Shown: positions 5,290 to 55,329 of the stretch, in pieces | Layout of the letters: each line of letters opens with the position of its first letter | Position numbering within the stretch: position 1 is the first letter of the stretch | IMG/VR virus record: IMGVR_UViG_3300029825_000005 | Location: 1 to 64,000 of that record | Direction: 5' to 3' (one strand) | Source: an uncultured virus (IMG/VR IMGVR_UViG_3300029825_000005) | Taxonomy: Duplodnaviria > Heunggongvirae > Uroviricota > Caudoviricetes | DNA: 64,000 nt | Translations under genes and position numbers: made by a program | Notes under the pieces: model-generated | Seen by the model: the letters and a program-made list of their open reading frames with translations, nothing else | Database searches by the model: none | What the model was told of the DNA's origin: nothing

Positions 5290-5309
5290 CTTTATGGAAG
5301 AAGAAATTT

Positions 5310-5579: not shown

Positions 5580-5593
5580 CACTCGGAGGCATT

Positions 5594-6378: not shown

Positions 6379-6396
6379 CCTACGAGGCGGGCGTGA

Positions 6397-6618: not shown

Positions 6619-6637
6619 CCCTGATAGCAGGTAGTTA

Positions 6638-8126: not shown

Positions 8127-8138
8127 GGACGGAATAAT

Positions 8139-10156: not shown

Positions 10157-10614
10157 TGGACATCCGAGTTGAAGGCGCAGAACAACTAATTGCCAAACTG
10201 ACTACAGTTCAGCAATTCAACAAGGTGAAGGCAGCGATAAGCCAGGAAAGCGTAATGCTTATCGGCAAGCTGAAGCATTATCCGCGCAAGACTTACATGC
10301 CTAACCCGCTCATCAAGAGCAATCCGAAAGTCAGGCGGGCGTTCTTTGCCAAAATGAAGGCAGGCGAAATAAGCGTGCCTTACAGACGGAGCGGTGACTT
10401 GCGTAAGCATTGGAATCGCTGGCTGGGTGACGGTGGAATGTCGGTCACGATTAGCAACTATTTGAATTATGCGCCGCTGGTACAAGGTGAAAATCAAACC
10501 TTCGGACACGGAGCAAGTGGGTGGCTGACTATTGACGCGGCTGAGAAGAAATACGCGCCGAAAATCAAGTTGCGCATTATGAAAGCAATTGAAGAGGAGT
10601 TGAGAAATGTCTAA
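10156..10614 (+). CDS. HK97 gp10-like neck/tail-completion protein
   Basis: DIRVEGAEQL...RRSGDLR...NYAPLVQG pattern. Confidence 0.55.
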   Translation: MDIRVEGAEQLIAKLTTVQQFNKVKAAISQESVMLIGKLKHYPRKTYMPNPLIKSNPKVRRAFFAKMKAGEISVPYRRSGDLRKHWNRWLGDGGMSVTISNYLNYAPLVQGENQTFGHGASGWLTIDAAEKKYAPKIKLRIMKAIEEELRNV

Positions 10615-33428: not shown

Positions 33429-33747
33429 CTATTTCGATTGAATAATCACAATGCTCACAACGCCAGCGCTCACCTTCGCCAACTTCTTCTGTTGTGGTTG
33501 TGTAGCCGTCATACAGCAATCTGCCACCACAGCGGGGGCAACGCGGTACGTGCTTCTCGTCCCACCGCTCCACTTGGAAGTAAAGCAGGCTGGTGTTTCC
33601 CCTGACCTTGTAAACAGTGTCGGGGTAGTAGAAGTAACGTTGTTTGAACGCCTTTACCGCGTCATCATAATTTCTGCCGTAACTGATGTAGTAGGTTGCG
33701 TCTTGCGGTAGGTCGTAAATGCTTTCAAGTTCGTGTGTTTCTGTCAT
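33418..33747 (-). CDS. Zinc-ribbon hypothetical protein
   Basis: CPRCG...CEHC; coupled to neighbours. Confidence 0.6.
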   Translation of the reverse strand: MTETHELESIYDLPQDATYYISYGRNYDDAVKAFKQRYFYYPDTVYKVRGNTSLLYFQVERWDEKHVPRCPRCGGRLLYDGYTTTTEEVGEGERWRCEHCDYSIEIVDD

Positions 33748-34520
33748 TTTTGCTCCTTTATCTGGTCTAAAAACTTCTGCCTTTTCTCTGCGTCAGGTTC
33801 TGTTGTACCCGGCTTTATGGACATTCCTATCATTGATTGCACTTGCCAGGGCGTAGGTGGCTGACCTTTCTTCCCACGCCAGTCCTCTGTTTGCCACCAC
33901 GCTGAAAATTCAGCCACTTTTTCGGGGGTATATCCATTATCCAGTAATCTTGTTGCTACTTTGTGCAACATTGGAATATTGTCGGAATATTTTAGAGACG
34001 TGGCATCTGCAACCGCTGCCGCCAACGGTCTTATGGCTTCAATAGGATGCTTTGATTTACGTTTTGACTTTGGTTCTGGTTTGCCAGACTGTAAGTCTGA
34101 ATCTAATGTAGTATTCTCTGTTATTAACAACGTATCATTTTGGCACGTTGCAATGGTATCAATTTGACCTGTTGGCTGGGTATCATTTTGATACTCTGGC
34201 TCTGTATTGTACATACTAAAAGCATTGTCAAGTTTCTCGTAGTTGATACGATAAAACTTCTTGCGGTTAGTAGATTTACTCTGCCGTGATACCACGATGC
34301 CGTCCTGTTCGAGCTTCAAGAATGTGCGTTTGATGGTGATTACACTCCAAAATGGGAACTGTTCGTGCCACTGTTTGTAGGTGTTGTATACCCAACCGTC
34401 CTTGGATTTCAGAGACCAGTAATGCAATTGCTGTACGATAATCGCTTCGTTCAATCCGATAGCGCAAGCCAGTTGCGGCAGGATTTGAAGGGGCTGTTCG
34501 GGTATAAGTAGTTTGCTCAT
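33744..34520 (-). CDS. Phage replication initiator
   Basis: IGLNEAIIVQQLHYW...WVYNTY..W.EQFPFWS..TIKR winged helix; internal iterons; DnaC-like gene in the same arm. Confidence 0.85.
   Translation of the reverse strand: MSKLLIPEQPLQILPQLACAIGLNEAIIVQQLHYWSLKSKDGWVYNTYKQWHEQFPFWSVITIKRTFLKLEQDGIVVSRQSKSTNRKKFYRINYEKLDNAFSMYNTEPEYQNDTQPTGQIDTIATCQNDTLLITENTTLDSDLQSGKPEPKSKRKSKHPIEAIRPLAAAVADATSLKYSDNIPMLHKVATRLLDNGYTPEKVAEFSAWWQTEDWRGKKGQPPTPWQVQSMIGMSIKPGTTEPDAEKRQKFLDQIKEQK
34132..34190. repeat. Iterons of the putative replication origin
   Basis: GTATCA(T/A)TTTG at 34132, 34156 and 34180, an exact 24-bp period inside the initiator gene. Confidence 0.7.
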
Positions 34521-34571
34521 ATGTTACTCCTTATGCCAGGTTACGAAGCCACCTGGCGGGGCTACTAAAAC

Positions 34572-35615
34572 TTAGAAGGATTCGATAAGGATGTTTTCGA
34601 TTTCTTCTTTTGCGAAGGGGTCAATCTCACCATCGCTAAGTCCTAACCATGCGTACATGGCTGTCATTGTTTCTGGTGATAGCTCAGCAAGGGCGGTAGT
34701 ACCAAACAGATAAGTGAGCATTGTAGTAATGTCTTTCACTGCATAGCTACCAGTAATTGCTTCGATAATCTCAGCTTGTACTTCGCTCGTGGCGGGCTTA
34801 GCGCTCTTTGCTCTTGTTTCAAGCATAGACTTCAGCTTCTCAGGTGCAAGCGGGCGTTTGTTAGAGCTTGACGCTTTCGGCTGGGGCTTGGCAGGTGCAG
34901 GTTTAGCTGGGGCTGGGGCTGTTTCAGTGAACGAGCCGTCAATGTAGTCTTCCACATCCTGAGTGAACCAGTCGCTTGCGTTGGTTGCGTTGAGTACAGC
35001 AGCCACGAGCGCTCGTTTCTGTGCCATTTTCTGGATGGTATTTACAATGTCTGCCACGTCTGGGTTAGCCACCCTGCCTGTGTGCTGGCTTTCAATCGCT
35101 GGGTCGCCGTCTTTGAACTTAGCACCACAGCCACCTTTCTTCGCAAAGCAAATCCAACCACCACCATATTCTGATTTACCTTTGATGATAGCTCCTGCTC
35201 CACATTCTGGGCAGGTCCGCTCTGCCTTACGGTAGCGGTATTTAGTTTCCCATGAATTGCACGAGCCTTCGCCTTGTCCTGCCACAGTGCCGTTCCGTAA
35301 CAGATTACACTTGTAGAAGAAGTAGAAGAACGGCTCTCCACCGTGGTCCTTACCTGTCCAGTCTGCCACCTTTTCGATAATGTCGTAGGTCACAGTAAGA
35401 CCAAAGAACGTAGCGAGTTTCTCTGCGCCTGGCTTGAGCAATACTGACTTGTTGCTTGTGCCTGGGATAGAGCCGTAGTCCACATCTTTGTTTAAGACCT
35501 TATCAATAAAGTCTTTCATGTCCTGATAGCGGGTTAGTGCTGTTTGCACGTTTACTACAGGGCTGAGGTAGTTGCTGGCGTTAGAACCAGCGTTGTATTC
35601 GATAATCTCATTCAT
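34572..35615 (-). CDS. Putative single-strand annealing/recombination protein
   Basis: DYGSIPGT...LLKPGAEKL, NTIQKMAQKRALVAAV, FTQDVED, inserted zinc ribbon and PA-rich linker. Confidence 0.65.
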   Translation of the reverse strand: MNEIIEYNAGSNASNYLSPVVNVQTALTRYQDMKDFIDKVLNKDVDYGSIPGTSNKSVLLKPGAEKLATFFGLTVTYDIIEKVADWTGKDHGGEPFFYFFYKCNLLRNGTVAGQGEGSCNSWETKYRYRKAERTCPECGAGAIIKGKSEYGGGWICFAKKGGCGAKFKDGDPAIESQHTGRVANPDVADIVNTIQKMAQKRALVAAVLNATNASDWFTQDVEDYIDGSFTETAPAPAKPAPAKPQPKASSSNKRPLAPEKLKSMLETRAKSAKPATSEVQAEIIEAITGSYAVKDITTMLTYLFGTTALAELSPETMTAMYAWLGLSDGEIDPFAKEEIENILIESF

Positions 35616-35805
35616 TGTTAGTATCCTTTTCTAATAGTTTGTTGGTCAATGAGCTAAATTCCTGCTCTTTCATCATTAAGTCTAATACGATAGTATTTAA
35701 TGTTCCTTGCGCTTCTTCGCACCTTGATTCGGCTATGTCTCGGATAGCTTTCAGCTCCCTTATATCATTGGCTGTTTTTTCGATAGTCTTTAATAGGTCA
35801 TTCAT
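35608..35805 (-). CDS. Small coiled-coil protein
   Basis: AAGGAG upstream; coupled. Confidence 0.6.
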   Translation of the reverse strand: MNDLLKTIEKTANDIRELKAIRDIAESRCEEAQGTLNTIVLDLMMKEQEFSSLTNKLLEKDTNNE

Positions 35806-36019
35806 TCTCAGTCTCCTTCTGTTCTTCTAAGTAATCCAGGAATGTCAGGATTTCTTTCATGTCGTCTCTTGTAATCCAAAGATTAGAGATGAAGCGCCAC
35901 CTGTCGTTTACAAAATCAAATAAAATAGTTCCTACATTTGATTCTGGTAGGCTGGTCGTTGTGACTTCGTACTGAAGCCCGCCTGCCTTCGTGATGAAGT
36001 TGAAATTTCCTTCTGCCAT
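35798..36019 (-). CDS. Hypothetical protein
   Basis: AAAGGAG upstream. Confidence 0.6.
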   Translation of the reverse strand: MAEGNFNFITKAGGLQYEVTTTSLPESNVGTILFDFVNDRWRFISNLWITRDDMKEILTFLDYLEEQKETENE

Positions 36020-36037
36020 AATTCTCCTTTCGATAAT

Positions 36038-36355
36038 CTAAAACATTGATAGTTGACCACGCTCTTGCATAAGCAAGGCGGGTGCGGCAAGTAGTATGCG
36101 TCTTGCCATTGGGTCTATGATTGTAACTTCTTTTCCAGCTTCCCATCCGTCTTGCGGGTTCATCCATGCAAGCAGGGCTATGTAATCTTCGTCTGCTGGT
36201 GTGCGTTTACCTGTGATGTACTCTAACGCTTGGTCCGTTAGGTCTTGCTTGTTGTTGAACAGGTCTTTGAGCAAGTCCTTTACCACTCGCTTTTGTGCGT
36301 TGGTAGCTTGCATTGGGAATAGGGTTGTATTTCGATATTCTTTCAGATAATCCAT
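36038..36355 (-). CDS. Hypothetical protein
   Basis: AAGGAG upstream; first gene after the promoter at 36384-36412. Confidence 0.65.
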   Translation of the reverse strand: MDYLKEYRNTTLFPMQATNAQKRVVKDLLKDLFNNKQDLTDQALEYITGKRTPADEDYIALLAWMNPQDGWEAGKEVTIIDPMARRILLAAPALLMQERGQLSMF

Positions 36356-36383
36356 CTGTCTGCTCCTTTTTACTTATGTAACA

Positions 36384-36412
36384 AGTATATCACTTATGAT
36401 AATAAAATGCAA
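36384..36412 (-). promoter_or_regulatory. Sigma70-type promoter
   Basis: TTGCAT-17 nt-TATACT on the minus strand in an intergenic gap. Confidence 0.7.
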
Positions 36413-36437
36413 TAGCAATCTGTTCTATAACAGGTGA

Positions 36438-36764
36438 TTAATTCGATAAAGTCTCCTTTCCTGGTTTGCTTGACCAGATAGGATAACCATAATAGGTGTT
36501 TCCTTCTTCGTCAATGCTGTAAAGAGATAGGTGGTATGGTCCTGCTGGTATGCCTTCATTGTTTTCTTCTCTCCAAATGCTGAGAGCATAGCTGTAGAAG
36601 TAATACCAATAATCATCCAGCTCATGTTTGCGTTTCTTGTCATAGAGTAGCAAGGTTAGCATAAGCTTCGATAATCTTACTGTCACGTCAAGTGGGATGT
36701 AGTCGTGAGTAAAATCTAAGAAGTATTCTTCCACGATTTCCATTGTTAGTTTGTGTTTATTCAT
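36438..36764 (-). CDS. Hypothetical protein
   Basis: 108-aa ORF whose start overlaps a GATTATCGAA copy. Confidence 0.6.
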   Translation of the reverse strand: MNKHKLTMEIVEEYFLDFTHDYIPLDVTVRLSKLMLTLLLYDKKRKHELDDYWYYFYSYALSIWREENNEGIPAGPYHLSLYSIDEEGNTYYGYPIWSSKPGKETLSN

Positions 36765-36881
36765 TCGATAATCATTTCTACTTTCTGTCCCAGTCGTTGA
36801 GTTTGCAAGCTAAGTAACCTGCGGTAAAAAACAGCACGTAAAGTAAGAAGTCAATGAGCGGTAACATTCGATAATCCTTTC

Positions 36882-37100
36882 TTAGTAGGGTCGTTTTATC
36901 CAGTTGAATTTGTTAATAGCTCGTGTTGCGTGGTCAAGGGCTTGTTCCAATGCGATAATCTCTATGTTGCTGGGTTCATCCATATGGTCAAGCTTGATTG
37001 ATTCCATCAAGTCGTCTATTTCCTGGGCGATGTCGTCAAGTTGACTCGATAATCTTAGGGCGGTCTTATATTGTCTGTTAGTCAATGTGACGTGCTTCAT
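36882..37100 (-). CDS. Hypothetical helical protein
   Basis: AAAGGA upstream of MKHVTL. Confidence 0.6.
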   Translation of the reverse strand: MKHVTLTNRQYKTALRLSSQLDDIAQEIDDLMESIKLDHMDEPSNIEIIALEQALDHATRAINKFNWIKRPY

Positions 37101-37169
37101 TGTTGTTCCTTTGCCTGCATACAATGCCTACAGGCGGGCTCTAAGGTTCGATAATCTACAAGGCGGGGT

Positions 37170-37817
37170 TTAATAAATGTTGCCGTCTTGCGTGAATAGA
37201 TAGTCCTTTGCTTCGATTGTTTCTATGATGTTTTCATCTGAGCTAAGGTATTCGTGCTCAGTCCGTAGCTGTTGATACATGGCTCTGGCTGTTCGCTGAA
37301 TAAAGCGGTTCAATTCTCTTTCCAGTTCGGTTATTTCGCTTTCTTCTGGGTTGAGGTAGTCTTCGTCAAGGTAGTTTTCAAGTTTCTCGCAAAGTTCACG
37401 CTGTTCGTCTGGGTCAAGCAGGTTATCAAGGCTACTGATTTTTAGTATTACTGACGCTTCATGTGAATAGTAGCGTTCTATGCGTTCAATGTAACAATCA
37501 TAGTCAAGGGATTGGTCTTTGATGTACTTGTAAAAGATCGGGTATGTTTTGTCAGTACCCGATTTTTCCATAAGTTTTACAAGGTCTATAGAGTTTGATG
37601 TAAAAGATAATCCGTCGCCTTGTGAATAGAATCCTGTGTACTTTACTTTGGGGTCGGTCAATCCATAAGTTTCAAGGGTATTCACAAAGTCTTGGATGAT
37701 ATAATCATCCCATCCAATGCAGTTTAAGAGAATATTTCTCATGTCATTGATGGCTTTTTTCTGAGCTTCGTCTGATAGCTCTTCAAAGCTGTATAAGTTT
37801 ACTGTGATGGTTTTCAT
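37170..37817 (-). CDS. Conserved acidic early protein
   Basis: LYSFEELSDEAQKKAI, GFYSQGDG, EYLSSDE.I.E.IEA..Y.FT.DG; AGAAAGGA upstream. Confidence 0.7.
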   Translation of the reverse strand: MKTITVNLYSFEELSDEAQKKAINDMRNILLNCIGWDDYIIQDFVNTLETYGLTDPKVKYTGFYSQGDGLSFTSNSIDLVKLMEKSGTDKTYPIFYKYIKDQSLDYDCYIERIERYYSHEASVILKISSLDNLLDPDEQRELCEKLENYLDEDYLNPEESEITELERELNRFIQRTARAMYQQLRTEHEYLSSDENIIETIEAKDYLFTQDGNIY

Positions 37818-37942
37818 TCGATAATCCTTTCTGGGGTTTTGGCTTGGGCTATGGTAGCATGGCTTTGATTAAGTCTGGGTCTTGGGTTCGATAAACTTTT
37901 TTCATGAGCGCACCAATAACTGTGAGCGGGCTGATATATATG

Positions 37943-39298: not shown

Positions 39299-39365
39299 TG
39301 TGTAACCTTTCTCCCGGTTATTATGACCGGCCGGGGCGGGTTGGGTGGGTTGTCTTTATGCTTAT

Positions 39366-39393
39366 AGTATAGCCACGGCTACTATAATTACAA
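39366..39393 (-). promoter_or_regulatory. Leftward early promoter
   Basis: TTGTAA-16 nt-TATACT on the minus strand, overlapped by an inverted repeat. Confidence 0.55.
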
Positions 39394-39454
39394 TAATACT
39401 TAAGTACTATTTTTGATTTTAGGGGCATTAGTGGCATATAGTACTTAAGTACTA
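39394..39454. promoter_or_regulatory. Pair of 16-bp palindromic operator-like sites
   Basis: TAATACTTAAGTACTA at 39394 and perfect TAGTACTTAAGTACTA at 39439. Confidence 0.6.
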
Positions 39455-40495: not shown

Positions 40496-40864
40496 ATGAA
40501 ACGAGATACAGAATACAACCCCAAGTCAAGAGGTGCGAAGATTGCTGACCTTGTCACAGGTCGTTTGAGCAAGCAAATCAAGGTAGAGCTGCCAGAGGAA
40601 GGTGTTACGCTGGTAGAACGGCGCATTATCCTGGCTGAAGCGCTTATTCAGCTGTTGACAACTGGAGAAGTAAGGCTGCCTGACAGACGTGACCCCGACA
40701 CTGGAGAGCTGATAAAAGGCAAAATCTTCACGTATGATGCCGATGGGTGGATTGAGCACGTCACCAAGCTATTGCGCTACATTGAGCCGCCTGTTCAGCA
40801 AATGGAAGTGAACGACATCAAGGGCGTTTTTATGAGCAAAGACTTTGAGCCAGATGAAGAATGA
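40496..40864 (+). CDS. Putative terminase small subunit (phage B)
   Basis: GAGGAGG upstream; overlaps the TerL start. Confidence 0.55.
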   Translation: MKRDTEYNPKSRGAKIADLVTGRLSKQIKVELPEEGVTLVERRIILAEALIQLLTTGEVRLPDRRDPDTGELIKGKIFTYDADGWIEHVTKLLRYIEPPVQQMEVNDIKGVFMSKDFEPDEE

Positions 40865-42200
40865 GCTGGTCCAGTGGGATGAAATTGTAGGCTTCACGCC
40901 AAAGCAGTTAGAAGCCTACAAAGCTATCCATAAATATAAGTTTTTGTTATATGGCGGCGCTCGTGGTGGTGGTAAATCAAGATGGGGCAGGTGGTCACTT
41001 GCCTCTTTGCATTTATATTGGGCTTCAAAGGGGATAAGGAACGTCACAACAGGGCTGTTTTCTCGCACTTACACTGATTTACAAGAACGCCAGATAGCAA
41101 AGATAGGCGCAGAGTTCCCAGATTGGCTCGGCACGCTCAAAGAAAGCAGAGAACACGGTCTCGCTTTCTACATAGATAACAAGTTTGGTGGTGGCGCTAT
41201 CACTTTGAAGAACCTGGATGACACTTCTAAGTATAAAAGCGCTGAGTTTGCTGCTATTTTTGTGGATGAGCTGACTGAAAATCAGATAGACGTATTCAAT
41301 ACCCTGCTCGGCTCGCTCAGATGGGCGGGTATCAGCCACACCCCCTTCTTTGCAGGCTCTAACCCTGACGGTATTGGCAACGAGTGGGTGTATAACTACT
41401 TCATTGAGAAGGAATATCCGCCAGAAATGCAGAATATGGCTAATCAATTCCATTTTGTGCCTTCAAAACCAGGGGATAACCCCTATTTAGACGAGAATTA
41501 CTACCAAATGCTCAATTCTTTGCCACCAGACCTCAAAAAAGCGTGGGTAGACGGCGAATGGAACTTGTTTAAGGGGCTTGCCTTCAAATCTTTCAAGAAA
41601 GAGACCCACGTTATCGAACCTTTCTACATTCCAGAGCATTGGGCACGCATTATAGGTATAGATAGCGGGTACGCAGCCCCATTTTGCTGTTTGTTTGGCG
41701 CACGCAATCCCGATAATGGACGTATTTATATCTATAAAGAGATTTATAAGACTGAACTCACAGACCAGCAGCAGGCTCGTTTGATTCTGGACTATTCTGA
41801 CCCAGAGGAACGTAGAGCGGTGAAGTATGCCGACCCTGCTATGTGGGTTAGAAAGACTCAGCGTGAAGTTACATCAAGTAGTAAAATATACGCAGAGAAC
41901 GGCTTGTTTCTCAGGAAAGGAAACAATGACCGTATTCAAGGGAAAAGGCAGGTTGACCGCCTGTTACAACCGATGGAAGATGGGATGCCAGGTATTGTGT
42001 TTTTTGAGAATTGCACTAATATTATTAAACAATTGTCTCACCTGGTTTATGATAAGAACAACCCAGAGGATGTAGACACCAGAGCGGAAGACCATGCTTA
42101 CGATGCTCTTAAGTATTTGCTTACTTCTGTAGGCGATTACAAGAGGAAAACACCAATAACGCAAACAACTTCACCGTTTGCTAAACTGACGAGGGTATAA
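40845..42200 (+). CDS. terL: Terminase large subunit (phage B)
   Basis: YGGARGGGKS, FVDELTE, GSNPDG, GIDSGY, EDHAYDALKY. Confidence 0.95.
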   Translation: MSQMKNELVQWDEIVGFTPKQLEAYKAIHKYKFLLYGGARGGGKSRWGRWSLASLHLYWASKGIRNVTTGLFSRTYTDLQERQIAKIGAEFPDWLGTLKESREHGLAFYIDNKFGGGAITLKNLDDTSKYKSAEFAAIFVDELTENQIDVFNTLLGSLRWAGISHTPFFAGSNPDGIGNEWVYNYFIEKEYPPEMQNMANQFHFVPSKPGDNPYLDENYYQMLNSLPPDLKKAWVDGEWNLFKGLAFKSFKKETHVIEPFYIPEHWARIIGIDSGYAAPFCCLFGARNPDNGRIYIYKEIYKTELTDQQQARLILDYSDPEERRAVKYADPAMWVRKTQREVTSSSKIYAENGLFLRKGNNDRIQGKRQVDRLLQPMEDGMPGIVFFENCTNIIKQLSHLVYDKNNPEDVDTRAEDHAYDALKYLLTSVGDYKRKTPITQTTSPFAKLTRV

Positions 42201-44014
42201 TGGCTATCAACATAGACGCTTTCAAAAACGCTAAAGACCACGGCGAGGAGTTGTATGCGACTCACTCATCTGCAAGGGCTATCCATAAAAAGATTGATGA
42301 GATGATAAATATGAAGTGGAGCGGGCAACCTGACGTTCAGAACGTCAAGGTCACTATCTCACCTTCGGTCCGCAACCAGTTTATGGGAGCTGTTAGAATC
42401 CTAACCTCTACTGACCCACAGATAAACGTTCCCCACGATAAGAACAGCGCTCAGTCTATAGCGATGGCAGAGAACATCGAGAAGATTTGTAAAGCCGTCT
42501 GGTATCACTCTGGTAGACTTCTACAAAAGCCTGTGCATTATGACTTGACTAACGCTCTCTTGCGCTATGGTCAATTTCACCTGGCTGTTACCGACACGAC
42601 TGACCTGCTTGAGCACTACCGCAATGGGATGACGAATAAAGCTACCCTGGCAAGGTATGAGCGTATTGCTAAGTACACGCCATTTCTCTTTACCCCTATA
42701 GACCCAAAGACTGGCAGCGCTCAGTTTGATGCTTATGGCTTGACTGCTTACTACCGACAGACTGAAACGACCTATGGCAATATCCGCTCTATGTTTGGAG
42801 ACCGTGAAAGCTACGCTACTAAGAAAGCTACAGAGGTAGTAACCTACAAAGAGTATTGGAGTTTAGAGCACCACTTCACCTGGATTGACGCTGAGGACAT
42901 ACCGTTTATTGGCGCAGACAACAATGGAGAACACGGCTTGCCGATTATTCCGATTGTAGTGCAGTCTGCTGAGGGCGTAGCGTTTGAAAAAGACCCTGAG
43001 CTGAAATCGCAGTCTTTCCTGTATGGTGTTCAGAAGTCCGAGATGTGGGAGCGGTTGAACCTAATCAACACGCTCAACTTCACCAACCTGTTTGCCTACG
43101 CCATGCAACCTGCTTTTGTGCACGAGAAGGGAGAACAGGACAGCGAGATAGTTCCTGACTTTTCTGTGGCAGGTGGCGTGTTACATCTGAACCCAGGCGA
43201 CAAGTTCGGTCCTATGAAACGTGAAGTAATCAACCAGGACATTATGTTCAGTAAGCAGATGCTCGACCAGCAGATAGAAGAATCCACTATGTATAAGCAG
43301 GCGCTTGGTGGTGGAGACCCTGGCAATGCCGCATTTTCTACCATTGCCTTGTTATCTCAGTCTGGGCGATTGCCATTGATTGCACCCCAGCGCTGCGGTG
43401 GGGCTGGCATTGGGCAGGCGTTTGAAACGATGTTTGCTCTAATGAAAGACAACCCGACCAAACGCACTTACCTTTCAGAACACGGTCTTGAACAAATAAA
43501 GACGGCTGAGATACCTGACGACCTTATTATTGATGTGAAGCTGGAAGCCGACTTGCCACAGGATAAACTGCAGATGGCTAACGTGGCAGCGATTATGAAA
43601 CAGAACAGCTTTGTTTCTGACGAATGGATTAGAGAGAACATTCTCGGTATCGGGCAATCTGATGATATGACTAAGAAGATTGTTGAAGAGCGCTTTGCTG
43701 ATATGCGTATTGAAGAATATTTCACTGGCGCTATGCGCCAAGAGATAGAGCTGCAGATACAACAGCAGATGGCTCAACAGATGGCGCAGCAACAACAAAT
43801 GATGCAACAGCCACCTATGCCGCAAGGTATGCCACAGGGCGCGATGCCGCAAGGTATGCCCCCAGGTGGTATGCCACAAGACATTCAGTTTGACCCAGCG
43901 ATGGGCGGAATGCCACCAGTAGTAGGCAAGGGCGCTATCCCTGCCAGCCGACCTAACATGAAGCCAACTTCAGCCAATGGTGAACCGCAAGGCATTCAGG
44001 AAGGTGAAATGTGA
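42200..44014 (+). CDS. Portal protein (podovirus-type)
   Basis: 604 aa after TerL; Q/M/P-rich C-terminal tail. Confidence 0.75.
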   Translation: MAINIDAFKNAKDHGEELYATHSSARAIHKKIDEMINMKWSGQPDVQNVKVTISPSVRNQFMGAVRILTSTDPQINVPHDKNSAQSIAMAENIEKICKAVWYHSGRLLQKPVHYDLTNALLRYGQFHLAVTDTTDLLEHYRNGMTNKATLARYERIAKYTPFLFTPIDPKTGSAQFDAYGLTAYYRQTETTYGNIRSMFGDRESYATKKATEVVTYKEYWSLEHHFTWIDAEDIPFIGADNNGEHGLPIIPIVVQSAEGVAFEKDPELKSQSFLYGVQKSEMWERLNLINTLNFTNLFAYAMQPAFVHEKGEQDSEIVPDFSVAGGVLHLNPGDKFGPMKREVINQDIMFSKQMLDQQIEESTMYKQALGGGDPGNAAFSTIALLSQSGRLPLIAPQRCGGAGIGQAFETMFALMKDNPTKRTYLSEHGLEQIKTAEIPDDLIIDVKLEADLPQDKLQMANVAAIMKQNSFVSDEWIRENILGIGQSDDMTKKIVEERFADMRIEEYFTGAMRQEIELQIQQQMAQQMAQQQQMMQQPPMPQGMPQGAMPQGMPPGGMPQDIQFDPAMGGMPPVVGKGAIPASRPNMKPTSANGEPQGIQEGEM

Positions 44015-44208
44015 TAACAATCAGAGATGCGATAGATGCTTTTATTAAAGCAAAAGCTTCGTTTATAGAAATACAGACGGAGTTTGAAACAGCTTGGGCT
44101 GCGCCTGCGGATAGAGCAATTAGCAGAATGCTCGCACAGCAGATGAAAGGCATGCCAGAAGTCAATCAAGAGGAATTGTCTCAATTAGAGAACGAGATAG
44201 GAGTATGA
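44011..44208 (+). CDS. Small hypothetical protein
   Basis: GTGA coupling with the portal stop. Confidence 0.55.
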   Translation: MITIRDAIDAFIKAKASFIEIQTEFETAWAAPADRAISRMLAQQMKGMPEVNQEELSQLENEIGV

Positions 44209-44209
44209 T

Positions 44210-45139
44210 ATGCCACTCAACTATAACGTCAAGCAAACAGATACCGGCGCAGGTGGTGGCTACAACACCTCCTTCACTATCAAGCCGCCTAAGAAAAAGA
44301 ATCCAAAACCTCTCTGGGATTATACGCTGACTGTTATTCCGAATAAACCGCCAGTAAAGCCGCAACCTGTTTGGGATGAGTACAACACAGGCTGGCAGCC
44401 TAATTCGTATAATCCGTATGCCCAACCAGCCTATGAAATATACGGTGGTTCTAACAGGAAACAATTGAACTTGCCACCAGTTACAGTACCGACAGCACCA
44501 GCGCCAGCCCCTGTGGTCAATAGAGTTGCTAAAGCCAATCCAGCAGTGCAGTCGTTTATCAATCTGATGAGAGGTACAGCGCTCAGTATGCCTACCTTTG
44601 ACCCTTATGAAACACCTATTACTGGCGACCCATACGACCACGGCGCTTATGTAGCGACAACAGCGCCTAATGTCAACCCATATCAAGCCGATTTAGATTG
44701 GGCTATGGCTAAAAGACAGAAGAACTCCCCCCAGGATTACTTTGACCGTATTGTTTTGAATGGGCGCACTTATGCCGTTCCTAACCAAATGCTCAACTTC
44801 GCTAAGGATTACCCCTGGGATACTTTGCCTTCCTGGTATGCGCCACCCGCAGATTTCACAGGCTCGCCTGAGTGGAAAGAAGTTACAGGTCCACCCGCAG
44901 ACAACGGCGCTCCTGCTGGTGGTGGCTGGGGCGGATGGGGCGGTGGTGGTGGCGGGTTTACACCCATGCCTTCTTCCCCAGGATACACTGGCTATGGTGG
45001 CGGTTATAATCCTTCTCGCTCTCCCAGACCTGCTTACTATCAAGGTAGATACGGCAGCAGCGGTGGCGGTGGCGGGTATGTAGGCAGTCAAAGTCAACGT
45101 GGCGCTTGGTACGGTGCTTTACTACAATGGAACATATAA
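44210..45139 (+). CDS. Pro/Gly/Tyr-rich protein, putative ejection protein
   Basis: Low-complexity; lies between the portal and the giant protein. Confidence 0.55.
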   Translation: MPLNYNVKQTDTGAGGGYNTSFTIKPPKKKNPKPLWDYTLTVIPNKPPVKPQPVWDEYNTGWQPNSYNPYAQPAYEIYGGSNRKQLNLPPVTVPTAPAPAPVVNRVAKANPAVQSFINLMRGTALSMPTFDPYETPITGDPYDHGAYVATTAPNVNPYQADLDWAMAKRQKNSPQDYFDRIVLNGRTYAVPNQMLNFAKDYPWDTLPSWYAPPADFTGSPEWKEVTGPPADNGAPAGGGWGGWGGGGGGFTPMPSSPGYTGYGGGYNPSRSPRPAYYQGRYGSSGGGGGYVGSQSQRGAWYGALLQWNI

Positions 45140-45147
45140 GGCGATAA

Positions 45148-48100
45148 ATGGCTACTCCTAAATATCAAACCCCGATAGATAAGTACCGCTGGCTCAAACA
45201 GCAAATGGACAAGGAAAGCTACGCTGGTCCTGTTGCTGGTTACAGACCAGAGGGATACGACAAGGTATGGCACAGAGAATCAACGATAGACCCAAAGGTG
45301 ACATACTGGAAACCTAACGCTATTAAGGATTCTCTTGCGCCATACGCTGTGTATGACAGCGGCAGAGAAAGGCAATCTTATTGGGAAGACCCCCGCAACG
45401 TGGGGGCTTGGCACGACTACCTTCAGTTGCAAGGTGAGGGCTTTGAAGCGCCTGAGCCTGTAGACAGACACTATATTGAAACCGCTTATCAGTACATGAA
45501 AGAACAGAACGGCTCTCCTAACTGGAACACCTGGAAGCCACTTCCTTTTGGGCATATGCTCTCGTATGTGGCTCAGCAGATTCCTTCACCAGAATCAGCC
45601 ATTGATGAGAGATTTCTGAACTCTACAGCAGACGGCAGCCGTTATCTGCCTGGCACTGATATTCGCAACCCTGCCTATGCGGTGCAAGCGCTCTTGGATT
45701 ACCAGAATGTAATAACCCAGATACAAGACGAAGCACAGCTAAAGACGGCACAGCAGGCTGATGAGTTAAATCAGTTCTATATTACAACGCAACAAGAGAA
45801 TAATCCGATTTACGACCAGTATCAAAAGGAGTTAGAAGAATCCGCTGGTGCTGATTACCTTGAGCTTGAGCCGTGGGAGCAGTGGGTCTTGACGCTGTCC
45901 AGCACCGCTGATATGAAGAACAGACCTAACTGGTCTACAAATATTGGCATAGTTAGTCAAGGTCTTATGGCGGCTGTTGGCGGTTTTGGGCAGGGTTCTT
46001 TAGTGGGCGGTGTTGTCGGCAGTGTAGTACCAGGCTTGGGCACAGCAGCTGGGGCTGTTGGTGGCGGTGTGGCTGGCGCTGTGCTTTCATTCCTTGGTTC
46101 GGTTGACGCTTCTCTACACGCAAGGAAAGGCGAGGAAGTGCCAAGCTGGTTGACAAACACAAATAGGTTCTTCAACCTTTTAGCGGAAGGCGTGGAAAGA
46201 AGTATAGGTGTTGCTCACATAGGGCTGAGCGTACAAGAAGAAAAGCTGGAATCAGGCGCAGAAATAACAGATAATCTATTCCCATCGTGGGAACAAATAA
46301 AAGGCGGTTGGCAGCCGTTCTGGACAGCGTGGAAAGCAGCTGACTTGCAATACGAATCTCTGGCTGGTACAGAGAACGGCGGTATTGGTGACTGGCTTGT
46401 AGACGCCGTATCTACAATAGCTCATACTTTTTTCCCGTCAAAGAACAGCGGTTTGACCACCGGACTTGGTGAAGTATGGCAATTGCACAAGGGCTTGTCT
46501 GGTCCGAGAGCGTTGAAAGGCTCTGGCACAATTGGTAGAGAATCGCAGGAAGAACTGTACAACATGCTTCTTGACAAAGACAACCCTGTAGACCCAGAAG
46601 TGGCACTTGCTATATTCAGAGATAAGTACGGTTACTCTGGCAATCGGAATGATATGTTTTATCAGACCCTTTTAGACCCTGCGGTAGTTATACCGAGAGT
46701 GCTTGCTAATATGGGCGTAGATTATGCTGGCACTAAGATACAGGACATTCAGCGACAAATTTCCGTAGAAGGTCCAAGCCCTGCACTAATTGACAACCTC
46801 ACAGATGCTATGAGGATGCAGGCTACATTTCAAAGGTCGATAGGCAATCCTATTGTTGACATATCCCCTTATCCAGTGCAAATGCTGTTTGATTACGTGA
46901 TTGGCAGAAAGAACCAGAACTTGCGGTCTACCGCTCCTTTCTTCCGTTCTGTTGCAGAATATAAAATGCTGAAAGACACGGGGCTGTTAGCGCCTGCTGC
47001 TTCAACGTTTGAGTTCAAGGCTGGCGATACAGACCTGGGGATGGTTTATTTTGGCACAGACAACTCTATCACATGGAAGAAGCCTGACGGCTCTGTAGAG
47101 TATATGTACGCCAGCACTGCTAATGCCGCTGGCTTCAAGTTTGAAATGGAAGAAGGTAAACCTGTTCTTTACGTGAATGGGCAGCGTGCTTCTACGATTG
47201 GTGGAGAAAATATTTATACCCCGCCAGAAGGAACTACTGTTGTAGACGTAGACCCAAACGCCCCACGCCCTGCTGCGGATGTGGATTTTGTGGAACAAAC
47301 TACGACAGTCACCGCAGACGTGGAACTGCCAGACGGCACAAGAGCGGAGAGTGTTGACATTGACCCAGCCAACCAAACTTTTGAGGCGCATGGACAGGAT
47401 GGGATTACATACATTGCCAGAGTAGAAGATAACGTTGTTATTGACACATTAAACAGCGAAGGTGTTTCTATCCACGACCCTAACAGAGTGATAACGATAA
47501 ATCCAGTACAAGTGCGTGTGAACGGAATGACACCAACAGAGGTAGCAAGGGCGGTTGATACTGTGGCTATTTTAGGCAGGGAATATATAACGCCAGCTCA
47601 GATAGACCCGAAGCTCACGCCGAGACCATTGCTCGACAAGTCTGCAAGCCCAGCCCAGAAAGTAAAATATTTCTTTAATGGTCTAAACAAGCTGACCAGG
47701 CAATCTCAAGTATTAAAAGTGCAAAGCAACCTTCACGACATTGTTAGAAATACCGCTTATATACAAGGGGGTAGTTTTACTCAAATGGTAAGGCTGTTGA
47801 AATCAATATTTAGCGGAGATATGGAGAGCCTTGATACAGCTGCTCGCAAGCTTGCCAACTCTACGGCTGTTGTGACAAGCGCTTCTATCTACAAGGAAGC
47901 AATCAATGATTCAGGCGTAGACACGATGGTTAACCTGTGGAATACCCCAGAGAACCAGCAGAGAATATCTGCCATTGGTAAGCTCTCTGAATCCATTAAT
48001 GTAACACCGGAAGAATTTGTTAAAATGGAAGCAGCGGAGATTGTGCCTTTGGTGCGAGCCGCTCTCCAGCAAAGCCAAGATGCCAATATGCTGGCATTGG

Positions 48101-51100
48101 CTGAGACTGTTACAGAAGACAGTATCACACTGTTGGTGAAGCCTTATATCGGCAAAGACCCGCTGCCAGTCACTGACAACGCTATGAAATTGAAGTGGCT
48201 CAATGCTTTAGACCTTCAGGTAGAAAAAATAGCCACAGAAGTCTATCAGGTACAACCGCTTAACACTGCTCAAAAGCTGTTGAACATTGATAAACAAATA
48301 CTTAGCTATGGTGTGTTCCTGTTGGGTTATCTTAGAACCAACGTACTTTCTAACGCTGGTGGTACTGCTGGTCTTGCAAGTGTTCCTGTCTATCGTAGTA
48401 AGAAGGGCGTAGACCATTTGTGGGAGCGGTTAGGGATGAGTCCACCGAGCGAAGGTGCTACGGCTTACAGACAGATTACTCACGGCGCTTTGTTCGATGC
48501 GCTATGGGGCGGTGAAAACTCTAAAGGCGTGCTAAAGAAAATATCCCAGGGGCTAAGCCAAATTAGCAGGTATCAGCCGTTCATGGCTTTATCAGGGTAT
48601 ATGGAGACTAAAGCACACCAGGGGGCAGACGCTTCTTTTGTTGAGCAGGCGATGGCTTACTTCACGCTTCCAGAGCCACGACCAGAGATAAAACAGAACA
48701 TTATCAATGCGATTGGGGAGAAGGGTTACAGAGACTGGAGAGCTGCTGTCAATAAAGCTTATAACGCTGGCGAGATGAATGATGCTTATAAAGTAAAGAA
48801 CAATCTTATTGCTAAGTATGCTTCAATTGAGAACACTGTTTTGGACGCTTTATATGAAGATGCCCCAGATTTAGGCACGGAACTGATTACAAAGTACGGA
48901 TTAGAAAAGCCGCTGAAAGACATTGTAGAGAACGCACGTACACCAGAGGATGTAGATGCTCAGATTGATGCGCTCAACAAATATATCAAAGAACAGCCTG
49001 CTGTTAGAGCTGCTATTGAAACGCAATCTAAGTTATTTGAAGGTGCTGAAAAGATTAGACAGGAAGGGCTGGTTGGTCTTGCTGACATCATGTTCCAAAT
49101 GGTAGACCAAAGCTTAGAAACTTGGTCTAAATCGCAGGACTTCTGGGAAGAAGCCTGGAATCGTGCCAGTAAAGCTAAAGATAAAGCGACATATCACGCC
49201 ATTATAAGGCAAGCAAAAAGAGACAATATCGCTGCGTGGGAAACGTCCAATGGGAACTCGCTGAACATGCTGAAAGGCGCATTTAGCGTAATGGATGCAA
49301 CAGACCCTAAACAGCAGCCGTTGTTTATTGTGTCTAAAGAGCTGTTCGATATGCGTGAGGAGTGGTCTGTTTGGCTTCAAGACACTTGGAATACTTTTTT
49401 CTATGGGGATTCTCTTTATGACTTCGACCAGATATTAGAGATTATAAGTGTAAAGTCTGAAGGCTATCGGCAAAGAGAAATAGAAATTATGAACTCTATG
49501 GCTGAAAACCTTTCTTCTATATTTGCAGAGAGCAACGCTAAGACTATCGCTGGGGTAGATGTAAAAGACACGGCTGGTGCGGTAGTAGACCTTATGAGCT
49601 TCTATTACAACGGAGACAAAAAGACCAAAGGCTACTTGCAGTTGGCTCAAGAAACAACTGATATGTATGAGTCCGTGAGGGGGCTGGATTACAACAAAGC
49701 AAGGTCTATCAAAAACAAATACTTCAAGAAGCTTGCAATCAATATTGATAAGCTGCACACTGAGCTGACTACCAGGGCGTACAACACCTGGCATAGAAAT
49801 CACCCTGAGATGGTGAGCGCAAAGAAGCCACAAAAGACAGTAACAAGAGAAGAGAAGGAAGCGGATAAATTCAGAAAGTTATACCAGGCGCAGCAGGCTA
49901 ACAACGATGTTCAGAGACGAGCAGCTAAGTCTGAATTAGACGCACAAACAGTAAGCAAAGGCACGGTTACGAGGTCTGCCCTGCGTGACTTCCTTGCCAG
50001 TACAGAAACAGACGTAGATATTTCTATGGCTTTAGTGGACAGTGTGGCTGAAGCTTGGGCGCACAATAACGGCAAAAAGCCTGAGGAGTGGTACTCCAAC
50101 ATTGGGGAGCTTGCGTTTGTAGATGCAGAATCCTTTAGCGTAAGTGTAAGAGACAAGGTAGTAGAAACGCTTGGAATGACCACCTTTGACGCTGTAGGTA
50201 AGGCTACTTTGACTTTTGCTAAAGGCGCTAACCTTACCACGCTCACCCACGAATTAGGGCACTTGATTGAAGCTACATTAGCAGACAACGACCTTACCGT
50301 AATGGTAGAGAATTTTGGCGCAGGTATCACGCTTGAGCAGTATAAGGCTGCAAGGTTGAAAGCAAGGCATGGGCTGGAACTGACCGATGCGGAAGACAAG
50401 ATGTTCAGGGATGTTGCAGAAGGAACGGCTGAAGGATTCCAGAAGTGGTTGATGGATGACAGTATCAGAGCGGAAACACCTGCCAGGCTCGCAAAGTTAT
50501 TCAAAAGCATAGCAGACTGGCTACACAAACTTATCAGCAAGCTTTCAGAACGTATTAGTTCTATGGACTTCCCGCAGGAACTAAAAGATTTATATGAGAG
50601 AGTAGCAAGGGTAGTAGACACGGCTGAAGCAGAGACCACAAACGCAAACCTAATGTCTACACTACCGACTGGCGTACAACACAGTCTGATAGACGCAGAC
50701 AATGTAAGCTACCCTGTCACTGCCAGGCTCATAGACCTGCGGAATGTTATCAACTCTCACAATACGGATGGTACAAAGAACACCATATTCCCTGTAGAGC
50801 GCCAGCCACGTACTTATAACCAGCTGTTTGTACAGAAGATAGCGAGAGAGCTAAATCCCATCAAGCTGCTGGAGAAAAACTCTGGGTTTGCCATAGGTCC
50901 TATTATTCTCAATGAGAACGGACAGGTCATGGTAGGCAACCATAGGGCAGGCGCTATGCGGTTAGCAGTAATGGATTACCCTGACCGCTGGAAGGCTTAC
51001 CAGGAAGAACTCGTAAAGAGACTGCCAGAGTATGGCTTGAGTGAAACTGATTTAGAGGGCATAGACCAACCCGTTCTTGTGTACACAGCCAGAAGCGCTG

Positions 51101-54100
51101 ATATTGATGCCGTTGTAAATGCTGGCAATATTCAAGAGCAGCAAGTCTTTATGATGTTTGATAACGCTAAGCGCTGGTCAACGTCGTTTCATCAGGACAG
51201 CTTAGCTAAGCTTGTCGTCGGAGATAACCAAACGTTCACAGACGCTATTAGAAGTGCCGCAAACAAAGACATAGTTTTCGACTTTATGGCTGGTCTTTCT
51301 GAATCAGAGAAAACCTCATTTGTTGGTAAAAACGGTTACTTGACAGATACTGGCGTGAGTGCCATAAAAAGGTCGCTTTCCTACCTGGCTATTGGCGGTA
51401 ATGAAGCTGGCGATAGTTTCCTCAAAGCCGCATTTGAAGACGCTGGGAGTTTGAGCGCCAATGTAATGAACGCATTGTTAGAATCCACCCCAGCGATTGT
51501 GAAGCTAAAGGCTTCTATTGAGAGTGGTGCTCTTACGCCAGATTATGCCATTTCTGACATTCTGGCTAAAGGCATAAGTGATTACATGTCGTTTATGAAT
51601 CTGCCACCCAAAGACAGGATATTAGACCAAACAACTATTTTTGATACAGACACAGTGGCTGGATTAGATAAGGATCTTATTCGGTTCTTTATGAATTACA
51701 GTTCGTCACCAAAGGCAATCAAAGCGATAATAACAGAATATGTAGATGGGGCTGTAGCTTCTGCAACCGCACCTGGGCAAGATGCTCTATTTGAAATGCC
51801 TAAGCCGTCTGCTGATTTGTTTATGGATGTTATAAGGAAAGCTAACGGACAACAGCTTGATGTTATAAAAGAAGTTACAGACTTGAAACACAGACGGTTG
51901 GTGTCTGAGATGAGCGAGTCTCCAGCCAGAAACTGGGAAGAGGAAATGCGAGCGCCTATTATCAAGTCTCTTAGGGAAATGCTAAAGGACATTACCCCCA
52001 CGCCGTCTGATATGCCTGACTGGATTCGAGTGCCAGGTCTTATGAGCGAAGACGTAAAGACCTCTTATAGAAATGCCCGCAAGGTTATCAAAAGCGTTAT
52101 TGACGAATTAGACCAGGGCAATGTGCTTTATCCTGAGCAAAGAGCTTTGGTTCTTCAGCAGGCTTTCACCAGAAGCTTGGCTTCTGATGACGCTTTTAGA
52201 AAGTACGCTGGGCTTGAGGGAGATAACTTCGCTCTTGGCGCTCAGGCTAACAAATTATTACAGGACATAAATCAGACGACAGACGACTCTGGAGAAATAA
52301 AGAGAGTGGGTGATGAAGCGATGAAGCTGCTTGCAAGCGGTGGTCCTGAGGATGTGTTGAATGAAGTTATCAAGAAAGCCACAGAGAAAACAACCGTTAT
52401 CAGCGAGCAGGATGCTTTTGAAGAACTTGGAGCTGACCCTAAGAGAGAGGTTGGCATAGAGAGAGGACAAAGGGTGATAGACCAACCAGTCAGAGGTACT
52501 TCAATGGGCAGGACTGCACCTGGCGTGAGACCTGACGGAGAGATGTTCTCTGAACTCTCACAGGAGATTGACGCATTGCTCAACACTTTTAGAGAAGAAT
52601 TGAAAAAAGACTTGGGCAACGAGTATGAATTTCCTGAGGAGATAAAGGACTTGCTTGACAAGCAGCTTCCGCTTGACCAGGAGAAATTGAAAGAGAAGGT
52701 TATGGCTTCTGCACAACTCGCTCAGCAGCTGAGACACGAAACACTTGTGAATTACTCTGAGCGATACGGTGCTGACCAGGTATTGGAAGTTCTGTTCCCT
52801 TACCAGTTGTGGTACACAAGGTCAGCGTTAGCTTGGCTAAAGAAGATTGTCACGACTCCTGCGATGATGGCGTTTATTGAGAGATACAAAGAGCTGCTCA
52901 AAAGGAACTCTTTGTCTGGCTTCCCGACACGTGTTGGTGGTAAACACATGATACCTTACGGCGATGAGGGCTTTATGTTTATGAACTGGCTCGACATCTT
53001 GTACCCACCAGAACAGATATTTGGCGTAGTAGACAACTTTGCTGACTTGAACGATGAGCTTTATGATGATACTGTTCGTATTATTAGAGCTAAAATCCTC
53101 TCTGGAGAAATCAGTGCAGCGGAAGCTGAGGAATCCATTAAGAACAGAAACGATGATACTTGGAATAGTGCTATGGCTGAAGCTACTATCAACTGGCACG
53201 AAGAATCAGGCGATGCGGTTACTATGACTTCGTTGGCTATGCTGCCACGAGCAAGTTTCAGTGCTGCTTATTATGGGCTTATTGGTCAGAAAGAGAAAAT
53301 CAATCAGTTGGCTATGACTAAGCTTGGCAACATGCTCAAAGGCGTAGACCCCGATGGGTTTGTTGGTCTACTTGGAGAGATTGTTGCTCTACCTGAGAAC
53401 ACAGCGCGTAAGGCTGTTGGACTTAGCAGAGAAGGGCAGTGGGGTGAGATGTACGTAGACAAGAAGCTGACAGAGCTTGCTATGTCTGGTGCATATTCAC
53501 CTGACGAGGTGGTGATGGCTATGCTTGAAAGAAAGGGCGAAGCTTATGATACAGCTGCACGATTGTCTCAAGTTGACCTGATAGCTACTTCTCAGCCTGG
53601 CGGCATTGTTTACCATGCAATAGAGACGCGAAATCTTGACGGTATTATGCCTGCCATTATGACGGCGCTGTTCCCTAAAGGTTTGTACTCAATGGAAGAA
53701 ATGAAATACAGAGGGCTGCAAGCTGAATACAATCAAGCCTGGGACGACTTCTCTCACGGAGACGCTAAGGCTCTTGACAAATTCTTTGAAGCTCATCCAG
53801 AATATGAAGCAAGGTTGCCACTCTATAAAGAGCCTGAGGAACGGCTGAGAGAATATGCGATTACTGCTATCTGGGATGCTTACGGAGCTCTTAGTTCTGC
53901 TGATAAATCTCTTGTTACAGACCAGCTCGGTAAGACGTTTGAAACGCTGTTCCTTGACAATAAGACCAGAAACTACGATGAGATTACTATTGACACGCTT
54001 GTTCTTTGGGGCAAACAGCTTGGCGCTGGTGTGCCAGAAAGCGCTTTAGCTGGGCAGCAGGTAGAGCCGCTGGAGTATTACAGAGAAGATGTAAGCGCAG

Positions 54101-54522: not shown

Positions 54523-54540
54523 TTAATATTAGTGTATAAT
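54512..54540 (+). promoter_or_regulatory. Promoter for scaffold/capsid genes
   Basis: TTGGAC-17 nt-TATAAT. Confidence 0.6.
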
Positions 54541-54561
54541 AACTGCTAAGGAGAAAATGAA

Positions 54562-55305
54562 ATGACAAAAGACGTTTATAACCAGGGCGGTGGAGAGGGT
54601 TTGGGTAAACCTGCTTCATCGTCAACCACTTCCCCAGAAGCATCTGCACCCACAGGTGGCGAAGGTAAGGAGTCTATTGGGAATGAGCCAATCACAAGAG
54701 AGTACCTTGAAAAGTTTGGCGAGGAGATATTGAGCAAAGCAGTAAGCAAAGCGCAATCTCTGACAGACAAGATGGGCAGTGCTCTCGACCAGAAGGTTAA
54801 GGAAGCTCACAGTAAAGCCGAGGAAGCTATCAAGCTTATCGAATCAGGTGGTGTAAACATGACTGAAGAACAGAAACAAGCCATTAGGCAGACTGCGGTC
54901 AATGAAGCCATCAGCCGACCTGCGGAAGCGCCCGAAAGCCCGAAGGGTATTGAAACTCCAAGTTTTGTTGATGCCGAAGTAAAAAGGATTATGGCAGAAT
55001 CTGGAATCTATGTATCGCCAGAAGAAGCAGAAAATCTTATCGGCACAGGTTTGTCTCCGTTTGTTTATGTTGAAAAATTTAAGCAATTAGTTGAGACAAA
55101 GAAACGCAACCCCTCTGTAAGACTCGGAACTCTTGCGCCAGGTGGAGATGCTGTTGATGATGTCACAGCGCTTCGTAGTAAGTACCAAGACGAGATGGAA
55201 CAAATCCGTTTGGGCAAACACCCTACGATTCGGCGTGGCAATATCGCACAAATCACCGACCTAAAGAAAGAGTATATCAAGAAGGGATTAACCAACATTT
55301 GGTAA
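54562..55305 (+). CDS. Capsid scaffolding protein
   Basis: Charged, helical; directly upstream of the capsid gene. Confidence 0.65.
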   Translation: MTKDVYNQGGGEGLGKPASSSTTSPEASAPTGGEGKESIGNEPITREYLEKFGEEILSKAVSKAQSLTDKMGSALDQKVKEAHSKAEEAIKLIESGGVNMTEEQKQAIRQTAVNEAISRPAEAPESPKGIETPSFVDAEVKRIMAESGIYVSPEEAENLIGTGLSPFVYVEKFKQLVETKKRNPSVRLGTLAPGGDAVDDVTALRSKYQDEMEQIRLGKHPTIRRGNIAQITDLKKEYIKKGLTNIW

Positions 55306-55329
55306 TGATAATCTTTGGAGGATTAACAC

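Follow-up and report, generated by a model that had tools for sequence, protein, structure and literature searches.

The repeat and the genes around it

The window analysed here is a stretch of 64,000 nucleotides (nt) of an uncultured virus of the Caudoviricetes, corresponding to positions 1 to 64,000 of the 66,746-base IMG/VR record IMGVR_UViG_3300029825_000005. The genes at 27.8-39.7 kb are encoded on the minus strand, and a ten-base word recurs within the leftward operon of about 12 kb found there. On the plus strand this word reads TTCGATAATC. On the sense strand of these minus-strand genes it reads GATTATCGAA. The repeat had been noticed in a prediction made from the sequence alone (hereafter the original prediction), which described it as a dense, co-oriented array across the early arm. 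The dense, co-oriented array proved to be real, and it was found to occupy about 3.5 kb of the operon (34.4-37.9 kb), not the whole arm.

Eight exact copies of TTCGATAATC are present in the window, all of them on the plus strand between 34761 and 37826 and at the positions originally given. No further exact copy was found on either strand of the whole record. When the window was shuffled 100 times with preserved dinucleotides, the mean number of exact copies was 0.17, and none of the 100 shuffles reached eight. If up to one mismatch was allowed, 20 matches were obtained against 3.47 expected (0/100 shuffles reached 20), and 15 of these 20 were on the plus strand within 34434-37896. The copies are listed below with the strand of the genes that they accompany and with gene lengths in encoded amino acids (aa).

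37817 to 37826, minus strand: exact copy in the sense context AGAAAG-GATTATCGAA-TG; its final A doubles as the first letter of the start codon (ATG) of the 215-aa gene (37170-37817)
37147 to 37156, minus strand: exact copy, intergenic; the 215-aa gene stops 13 nt before it, and a hairpin (37114-37134) follows 12 nt downstream
36867 to 36876, minus strand: exact copy abutting the ATG of a gene for a 29-aa hydrophobic peptide (36778-36867); the homology with relatives breaks off here
36764 to 36773, minus strand: exact copy immediately before the ATG of the 108-aa gene
36667 to 36676, minus strand: exact copy within the 108-aa gene, in the frame encoding RLSK
36029 to 36038, minus strand: exact copy that shares bases with the TAG stop of the 105-aa gene and enters the AGGAG ribosome-binding site of the 73-aa gene
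35598 to 35607, minus strand: exact copy placed directly behind the stop codon (TGA) of the 65-aa gene and making up codons 3-6 (EIIE) of the 347-aa gene
34761 to 34770, minus strand: exact copy deep in the 347-aa gene (EIIE, position 846 of the coding sequence)
34434, 35373, 35779, 36331, 36951, 37045 and 37887, minus strand: seven one-mismatch copies, all in one orientation, spanning 34434 to 37896
34581, 36343 and 36442, minus strand: three two-mismatch copies in the same orientation as the others

The near copies at 34434 (one mismatch) and 36343 (two mismatches) had escaped the original prediction; the six other one-mismatch copies and those at 34581 and 36442 had been placed correctly. 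It had also been claimed that copies lie between genes, in the gap between Shine-Dalgarno sequence and ATG, and inside genes in different frames, and all of these contexts were found. The in-gene copies occupy all three frames (EIIE, RLSK and EYRN). At 37817, 36867 and 36764 the exact copy abuts the start codon in the arrangement GATTATCGAATG, and in two of these three cases its first G completes an AAAGGA Shine-Dalgarno sequence.

Conservation in related viruses

Relatives were collected by a protein-anchored scan with the 347-aa protein (34572-35615), which yielded 11 viral, 49 metagenome and 4 genome-contig loci, the last four being metagenome-assembled contigs. The exact motif was present in 23 further loci, with 2 to 13 exact copies in each and none in antisense orientation. 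These loci amount to 22 distinct contigs, because locus L050 is on the same 12,989-bp viral contig as L009/L028/L040. Two motif-bearing clades were distinguished, the 347-aa homologue being 94-97% identical in one and 64-80% in the other. Every locus with a homologue at 94-97% identity, or at 64-80% identity from the N-terminus on, carries the exact motif. In the second clade the 105-aa protein is about 65% identical, and the motif is still exact.

In order to count independent occurrences, distinct 40-nt contexts were taken over the window and the 23 loci. Sense contexts numbered 98 for exact copies, 51 for one-mismatch copies and 78 for two-mismatch copies, against 0, 0 and 15 antisense contexts, respectively. 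The motif is strand-specific in the two clades as it is in the window. Its most frequent variant was GATAATCGAA, seen in 14 contexts. The conserved core measures 10 nt, and the flanks differ between copies.

No exact copy was detected in the distant relatives, which share 57-70% identity over part of the 347-aa protein and have a GC content of ~0.40 or >0.55. In one of them (L065, on the same contig as L010), five one-mismatch sense copies and no antisense copy were seen at 4874-9435; these near copies may be left over from an array or represent its precursor. Motifs of the distant relatives' own were also considered, and no analogue was found. In L010, L012, L017 and L018 the abundant k-mers restricted to one strand turned out to be tandem coding repeats, for example pentapeptide repeats, and the word GGAGATTGATA of L069 was discarded as an analogue with just two ribosome-binding-site contexts.

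Scans for other carriers used a 17-mer and a pair of copies spaced by 70-100 nt. The matches were mostly due to chance or to in-frame protein repeats; those in L033 and L034 were explained by encoded xIIE repeats. Among the matches, a single viral contig proved to be a true relative. GenBank phages gave no DNA match, either near or distant, and a literature search for the motif string gave nothing phage-related among the matches listed. The metagenomes in which this lineage occurs come from fermentation, wastewater, landfill and digester sources.

Selection on the copies inside genes

In a codon-preserving shuffle of the eight genes of the block, the mean number of exact in-gene copies was 0.157, compared with three in the natural sequence, and only one of 2000 shuffles reached three. 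With up to one mismatch, eight in-gene copies were found against a mean of 1.45, and none of the 2000 shuffles reached eight. Codon alignments were made for the two proteins common to both motif-bearing clades. Wherever a codon for an invariant residue is covered by the motif, it never varies: ATT and GAA were kept in 19/19 sequences, TAT and the six-fold degenerate CGA in 15/15. Among the other codons for invariant residues, just 26-27% were invariant.

Since the motif codons are invariant at synonymous sites, at least some of the in-gene copies are kept at the nucleotide level. The original prediction had held that protein sequence does not explain the copies and that the sites are polar; both views were borne out, the word being a polar cis-acting element under selection. 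The codon-preserving shuffle, the comparison with related phages and the inspection of synonymous positions had been suggested along with it as checks, and each gave the result that it anticipated.

Position relative to gene starts

The motif is linked to gene starts. A copy with at most one mismatch lies between -60 and +30 at 90 of the 124 distinct starts of the block, whereas the figure outside the block is 2 of 106. The offset between the 3' end of the motif and the start codon showed sharp peaks at 0 (26 cases), +1 (9), -1 (6) and -9 (9), with minor groups at +18 to +27 and at -45 to -50. The commonest position is that in which the motif abuts the ATG, and one and the same motif precedes unrelated gene families.

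The 152 exact copies were reduced to 64 context groups, which were sorted automatically, a few of them being misfiled. In 26 of the 64 groups the start codon is -1 to +3 nt past the motif. A further 15 have the motif past a stop codon and ahead of the following Shine-Dalgarno sequence or start (start 4-25 nt downstream), and in seven it lies just past a stop with no start nearby. Thirteen groups are within long open frames, and three were classed as other.

The original prediction had offered silencing, protection or uptake of early DNA as possible roles of the sites. Nothing points to protection or to DNA being pulled in. As the array is limited to one gene block and tied to gene starts, a per-gene signal fits better than a DNA-handling track.

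Very small genes for hydrophobic peptides were observed as cassettes with the motif at their start. They include the 29-aa gene at 36778-36867 and, in the second clade, a 27-aa family (loci L054-L064).

The hairpin partner and other signals of the operon

Copies located at -45 to -50 precede a module that consists of a C-rich leader, a stem of 6-7 bp with a loop of 9-11 nt (consensus GGCATTGTA), the sequence CAGAAAGG and the start codon. In the first collection of these hairpins pairing was required, so that its 100% paired cells are partly circular. A second search relied on the invariant flanks alone and gave 14 distinct elements with six stems, of which 14/14 were paired at 4/4 free positions. 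The hairpin elements carry compensatory changes. These hairpins and the other signals found in this part of the window are given below.

37114 to 37134, minus strand: hairpin with the 9-nt loop GGCATTGTA; it has a U.G pair on the sense strand, where the other strand would have an A.C mismatch
34536 to 34556, minus strand: second hairpin of the family, between the 347-aa gene and the initiator gene
39314 to 39330, minus strand: similar hairpin just past the early promoter, seen by reading the sequence; it belongs to the 5' leader of the first gene, whose ATG is at 39298
39366 to 39393, minus strand: predicted sigma-70-like leftward promoter (TTGTAA, 16 nt, TATACT)
39395 to 39408 and 39440 to 39453, no strand assigned: two 14-bp palindromes, likely operators, just upstream of the leftward early promoter and unlike the 10-mer
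34132 to 34190, no strand assigned: three 11-nt iteron-like repeats with 24-nt spacing, inside the initiator gene (33744-34520, PHROG matches)

The covariation of the hairpin, its U.G pair and the presence of a leader hairpin after the promoter argue for an RNA-level action of the signals between the genes of this operon. The two palindromes are likely the operators of a dimeric repressor, and they would suit a dimeric helix-turn-helix repressor better than the 10-mer does. The iterons at 34132-34190 are likely the origin of replication. A switch in the sign of the GC skew was seen near 34 kb.

These signals also bear on what the motif might be. It was rejected as an iteron of the initiator, whose gene has its own, different repeats, and as the promoter operator, since the operators at 39395 and 39440 differ from it and are palindromic. 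No match to the motif was found among Rfam families, and no known RNA families or tRNAs were found. Chi-like and KOPS-like sites, the Fur box and the Spo0A box were considered as well; none of them explains the link to starts, the exactness over 10 nt and the restriction to one block.

Candidate reading factors

The 105-aa protein (36038-36355, minus strand) is present in both motif-bearing clades and was undetected in seven distant loci. In a large protein collection its homologues form only 28 clusters, at 61% identity or more. Codons 6-9 of its own gene bear a motif copy. The structural model (pLDDT 87) shows three helices, a beta-hairpin and a helix. Given that it co-occurs with the arrays, the 105-aa protein is a candidate trans-acting factor.

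Three candidate binders had been named in the original prediction: the XRE protein, the 39845 protein and the ParB-like domain of the giant protein. For the XRE protein and the 142-aa protein, homologues were found in the second clade where the contigs reach, so that both stay candidates. The 347-aa protein had no PDB or NCBIfam match. Elsewhere in the window, an 83-aa protein (5038-5289) gave a match (E = 6e-11) to PHROG 351, a phage sigma-factor family, over the C-terminal part of that family, and the single Pfam match of a 3124-aa protein (45148-54522) is to a ddrB-like ParB domain at residues 1851-1979.

Interpretation

The reading that we prefer, with a probability of roughly 0.4, is that GATTATCGAA is a per-gene, strand-specific site for a putative clade-restricted factor and is read on the mRNA. 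The small early genes of this one block have about one tag each, and the polycistronic mRNA, or possibly the non-template strand of the DNA, would be the molecule on which it is read. The reader, which we infer to be a protein, would be a sequence-specific factor limited to these clades that controls the whole block jointly, by way of translation initiation, coupling or processing. The tag is placed where coding leaves room, namely in the spacer between Shine-Dalgarno sequence and ATG, between a stop codon and the Shine-Dalgarno sequence that follows it, or in the leader before a 5' hairpin. As the same 10 bases are found at every junction, it probably doubles as a small homology patch for cassette exchange.

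Several results weigh against this proposal. About one fifth of the contexts are deep in genes, and a translational signal alone would not need them; nor would a purely translational signal need the 7 of 64 contexts that are 45-50 nt upstream of a start. The predicted RNA accessibility was 0.566 against 0.529 for the control, a marginal difference (p = 0.04). The duplex with Escherichia coli 16S rRNA scored -7.2 compared with a shuffled mean of -7.7, in what is a weak test, as this rRNA may not be like the host's. Pairing with 16S rRNA was discarded on this basis, the motif being no better than its shuffled version with the E. coli molecule. The one-mismatch variants are not wobble-biased, which makes RNA-RNA pairing unlikely. 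The model of the 105-aa protein had no significant fold match (best Foldseek E 0.29; best VIA-align Z 4.4), and no reader was found. Finally, the results do not separate recognition of RNA from recognition of DNA.

Contigs from RNA libraries (runs X15 and X17, from two studies) cover most of the block, over window positions 34000-37104. Such contigs cannot prove transcription or show transcript ends, and their breaks near motif copies are explained equally well by strain polymorphism.

Another explanation, which we consider unlikely, is that the word acts like a stoperator: an asymmetric site on double-stranded DNA at which a monomeric phage protein blocks RNA polymerase in one direction, gating the immediate-early genes versus the replication module. 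The site is indeed asymmetric, and every copy is co-oriented with transcription. The copies are in short intergenic gaps and over start and stop codons, as the literature describes for L5-type stoperators, and a position-independent DNA site explains well why synonymous sites are retained inside genes. The array also lies between the promoter-proximal genes and the initiator gene with its origin. However, the early promoter is without a copy and has different, palindromic operators, and the sites are confined to 3.5 kb instead of being genome-wide. Family scans of the submitted open reading frames (ORFs), which did not include every ORF, gave no sign of an integrase or of lysogeny. Moreover, a pattern of one copy per gene with sharp offsets is not demanded of roadblocks.

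That the motif is primarily a recombination linker appears improbable. According to this idea, the 10-18 bases shared at gene borders are crossover points, and the motif persists by travelling with the cassettes. The block varies more than any other part of the operon and is a mosaic, in which the same downstream gene is joined to differing upstream genes precisely at the motif. Ninety-five of 450 internal BLAST alignment ends were within 6 nt of a copy, compared with 5% expected by position. A 542-letter insertion exactly at 36773/36775 was found in the contig of one run, and rearrangement joints lie at 37157 and 36867, all of them motif edges; altogether, contigs of four public runs show junctions of this kind, together with loose ends at 36877 and 36882. 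On the other hand, the diversity of upstream families per occurrence was slightly higher at starts with the motif (0.43 vs 0.30), and one deletion had used AAGGAGA Shine-Dalgarno microhomology rather than the motif. Ten bases are also very short for homologous recombination, and no recombinase was identified. The linker leaves the invariant synonymous sites and the sharp 10-nt boundary unexplained. In view of the microhomology deletion, the modest neighbour diversity and the shortness of the repeat, recombination is treated here as a side effect of the motif and not as its function.

A promoter at each copy, used by an RNA polymerase that the phage has modified or by a sigma-like phage factor and yielding one transcript per cassette, is very improbable. 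In its favour, the copies are co-oriented with genes, the A2 and T6 of a -10 hexamer can be read in GATTAT, the window encodes an 83-aa sigma-like protein (5038-5289), and the true early promoter is followed by the same module of hairpin and ribosome-binding site. Against it, the commonest class of copies ends 0-1 nt before the ATG, so that a start site 6-7 nt further on would be inside the gene; there is no consistent -35 element, and many copies are in genes.

Comparison with known systems

The original prediction had named mycobacteriophage stoperators and start-associated sequences (SAS) as analogues, and the analogy was found to be apt. The SAS of Cluster K mycobacteriophages have been known since 2011 (PMC3203893), and a 2025 survey states that their functional role still needs experimental verification (PMC12699233). 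As these accounts describe them, SAS resemble the present motif in being short asymmetric repeats with ~10-19 copies per genome in one orientation. They accompany non-structural genes only; here, 149 sense and no antisense contexts were counted at up to one mismatch, and all eight exact copies of the window are in the early operon. Both are found a few bases from start codons, in front of different gene families, and are kept across sub-lineages. In both, a subset of copies has an inverted-repeat element, upstream in the case of SAS, and the function is not known for either.

There are also differences. The motif is the 10-nt GATTATCGAA, whereas SAS is the 13-nt GGGATAGGAGCCC, and the former does not match the SAS consensus within two deviations. 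It is without the AGGAG Shine-Dalgarno core, which it overlaps by its first or last 2-3 bases only. Its register varies: some copies abut the ATG or lie ahead of the Shine-Dalgarno sequence, and others follow a stop codon or are placed a little way into a gene. About one fifth of the contexts here are in genes, compared with 6 of 125 in the 2025 survey (PMC12699233). The extended SAS (ESAS) are 17-bp imperfect inverted repeats immediately ahead of the SAS, whose deviations were judged not to support RNA pairing, in contrast to the companion described here, a covarying stem of 6-7 bp with a loop of 9-11 nt. Furthermore, the present phage lineage is unrelated and uncultured. The motif is analogous to the Cluster K SAS, which are the closest known system, but it is not a member of that family.

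The stoperators of Cluster A (L5 gp71-type; PMC9283540) share with the motif an asymmetric site of similar length, an orientation that follows transcription and a location in short intergenic spaces. In Cluster A a monomeric immunity repressor binds the site, and the block is lost when the site is reversed. They differ in number and distribution, with more than 20 sites genome-wide, whereas here all sites are within 34434-37896 of the 66,746-base record. Theirs also serve as promoter operator; the promoter region here (39366-39453) is without the motif and has the two 14-bp palindromes. Neither a repressor homologue nor a sign of lysogeny was seen here, again in scans that did not include every ORF.

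Two further comparisons can be made. The sites of the T4 RegA repressor and of RegB cleavage allow a phage factor to act on many early mRNAs at or near the ribosome-binding site; these sites are short or degenerate, unlike an exact 10-mer. No RegA or RegB homologue was seen, though no search was aimed at one. Integron attC sites and the T4 promoter-early stem-loop (PeSL) are co-oriented repeats that border exchangeable small genes. They differ from the present case, in which no integrase was seen among the ORFs scanned, there is no imperfect inverted repeat and no promoter, and in which copies are found in genes too.

Biological significance

Two packaging and head modules were observed in the record. 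The first (6948-12400) comprises a large terminase (6948-8126), a portal, a MuF-like protein and an HK97-type capsid (10607-12400). The second (40845-56469) comprises a large terminase (40845-42200), a 604-aa protein and an SU10-type capsid (55330-56469). This doubling could mean that the assembly is chimeric or that the genome is unusual. The stretch 39.3-40.5 kb is, however, bridged by an independent contig of 13 kb.

The motif represents an independent, sequence-unrelated case of SAS-like organization, with about 150 natural sense contexts at up to one mismatch, a covarying hairpin and selection at synonymous sites. Being a second case that is independent of the first, it suggests that phages use tags on the individual genes of early operons as a recurrent strategy, and it offers a second system in which the reader could be sought. 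The motif also marks a variable block in which accessory genes are exchanged; that host-takeover or counter-defence genes are among them is speculation.

A more far-reaching version of the mRNA reading is put forward only tentatively, and we regard it as rather doubtful. A private 10-base code would tag each gene of a swappable early block on the mRNA, and a small protein found only in these clades, for which the 105-aa protein (36038-36355) is the candidate, would switch the block on or off or cut it into units, with the result that cassettes would arrive control-ready. If this is true, the early block would constitute a self-contained regulon-plus-cassette system, convergent with the SAS of mycobacteriophages.

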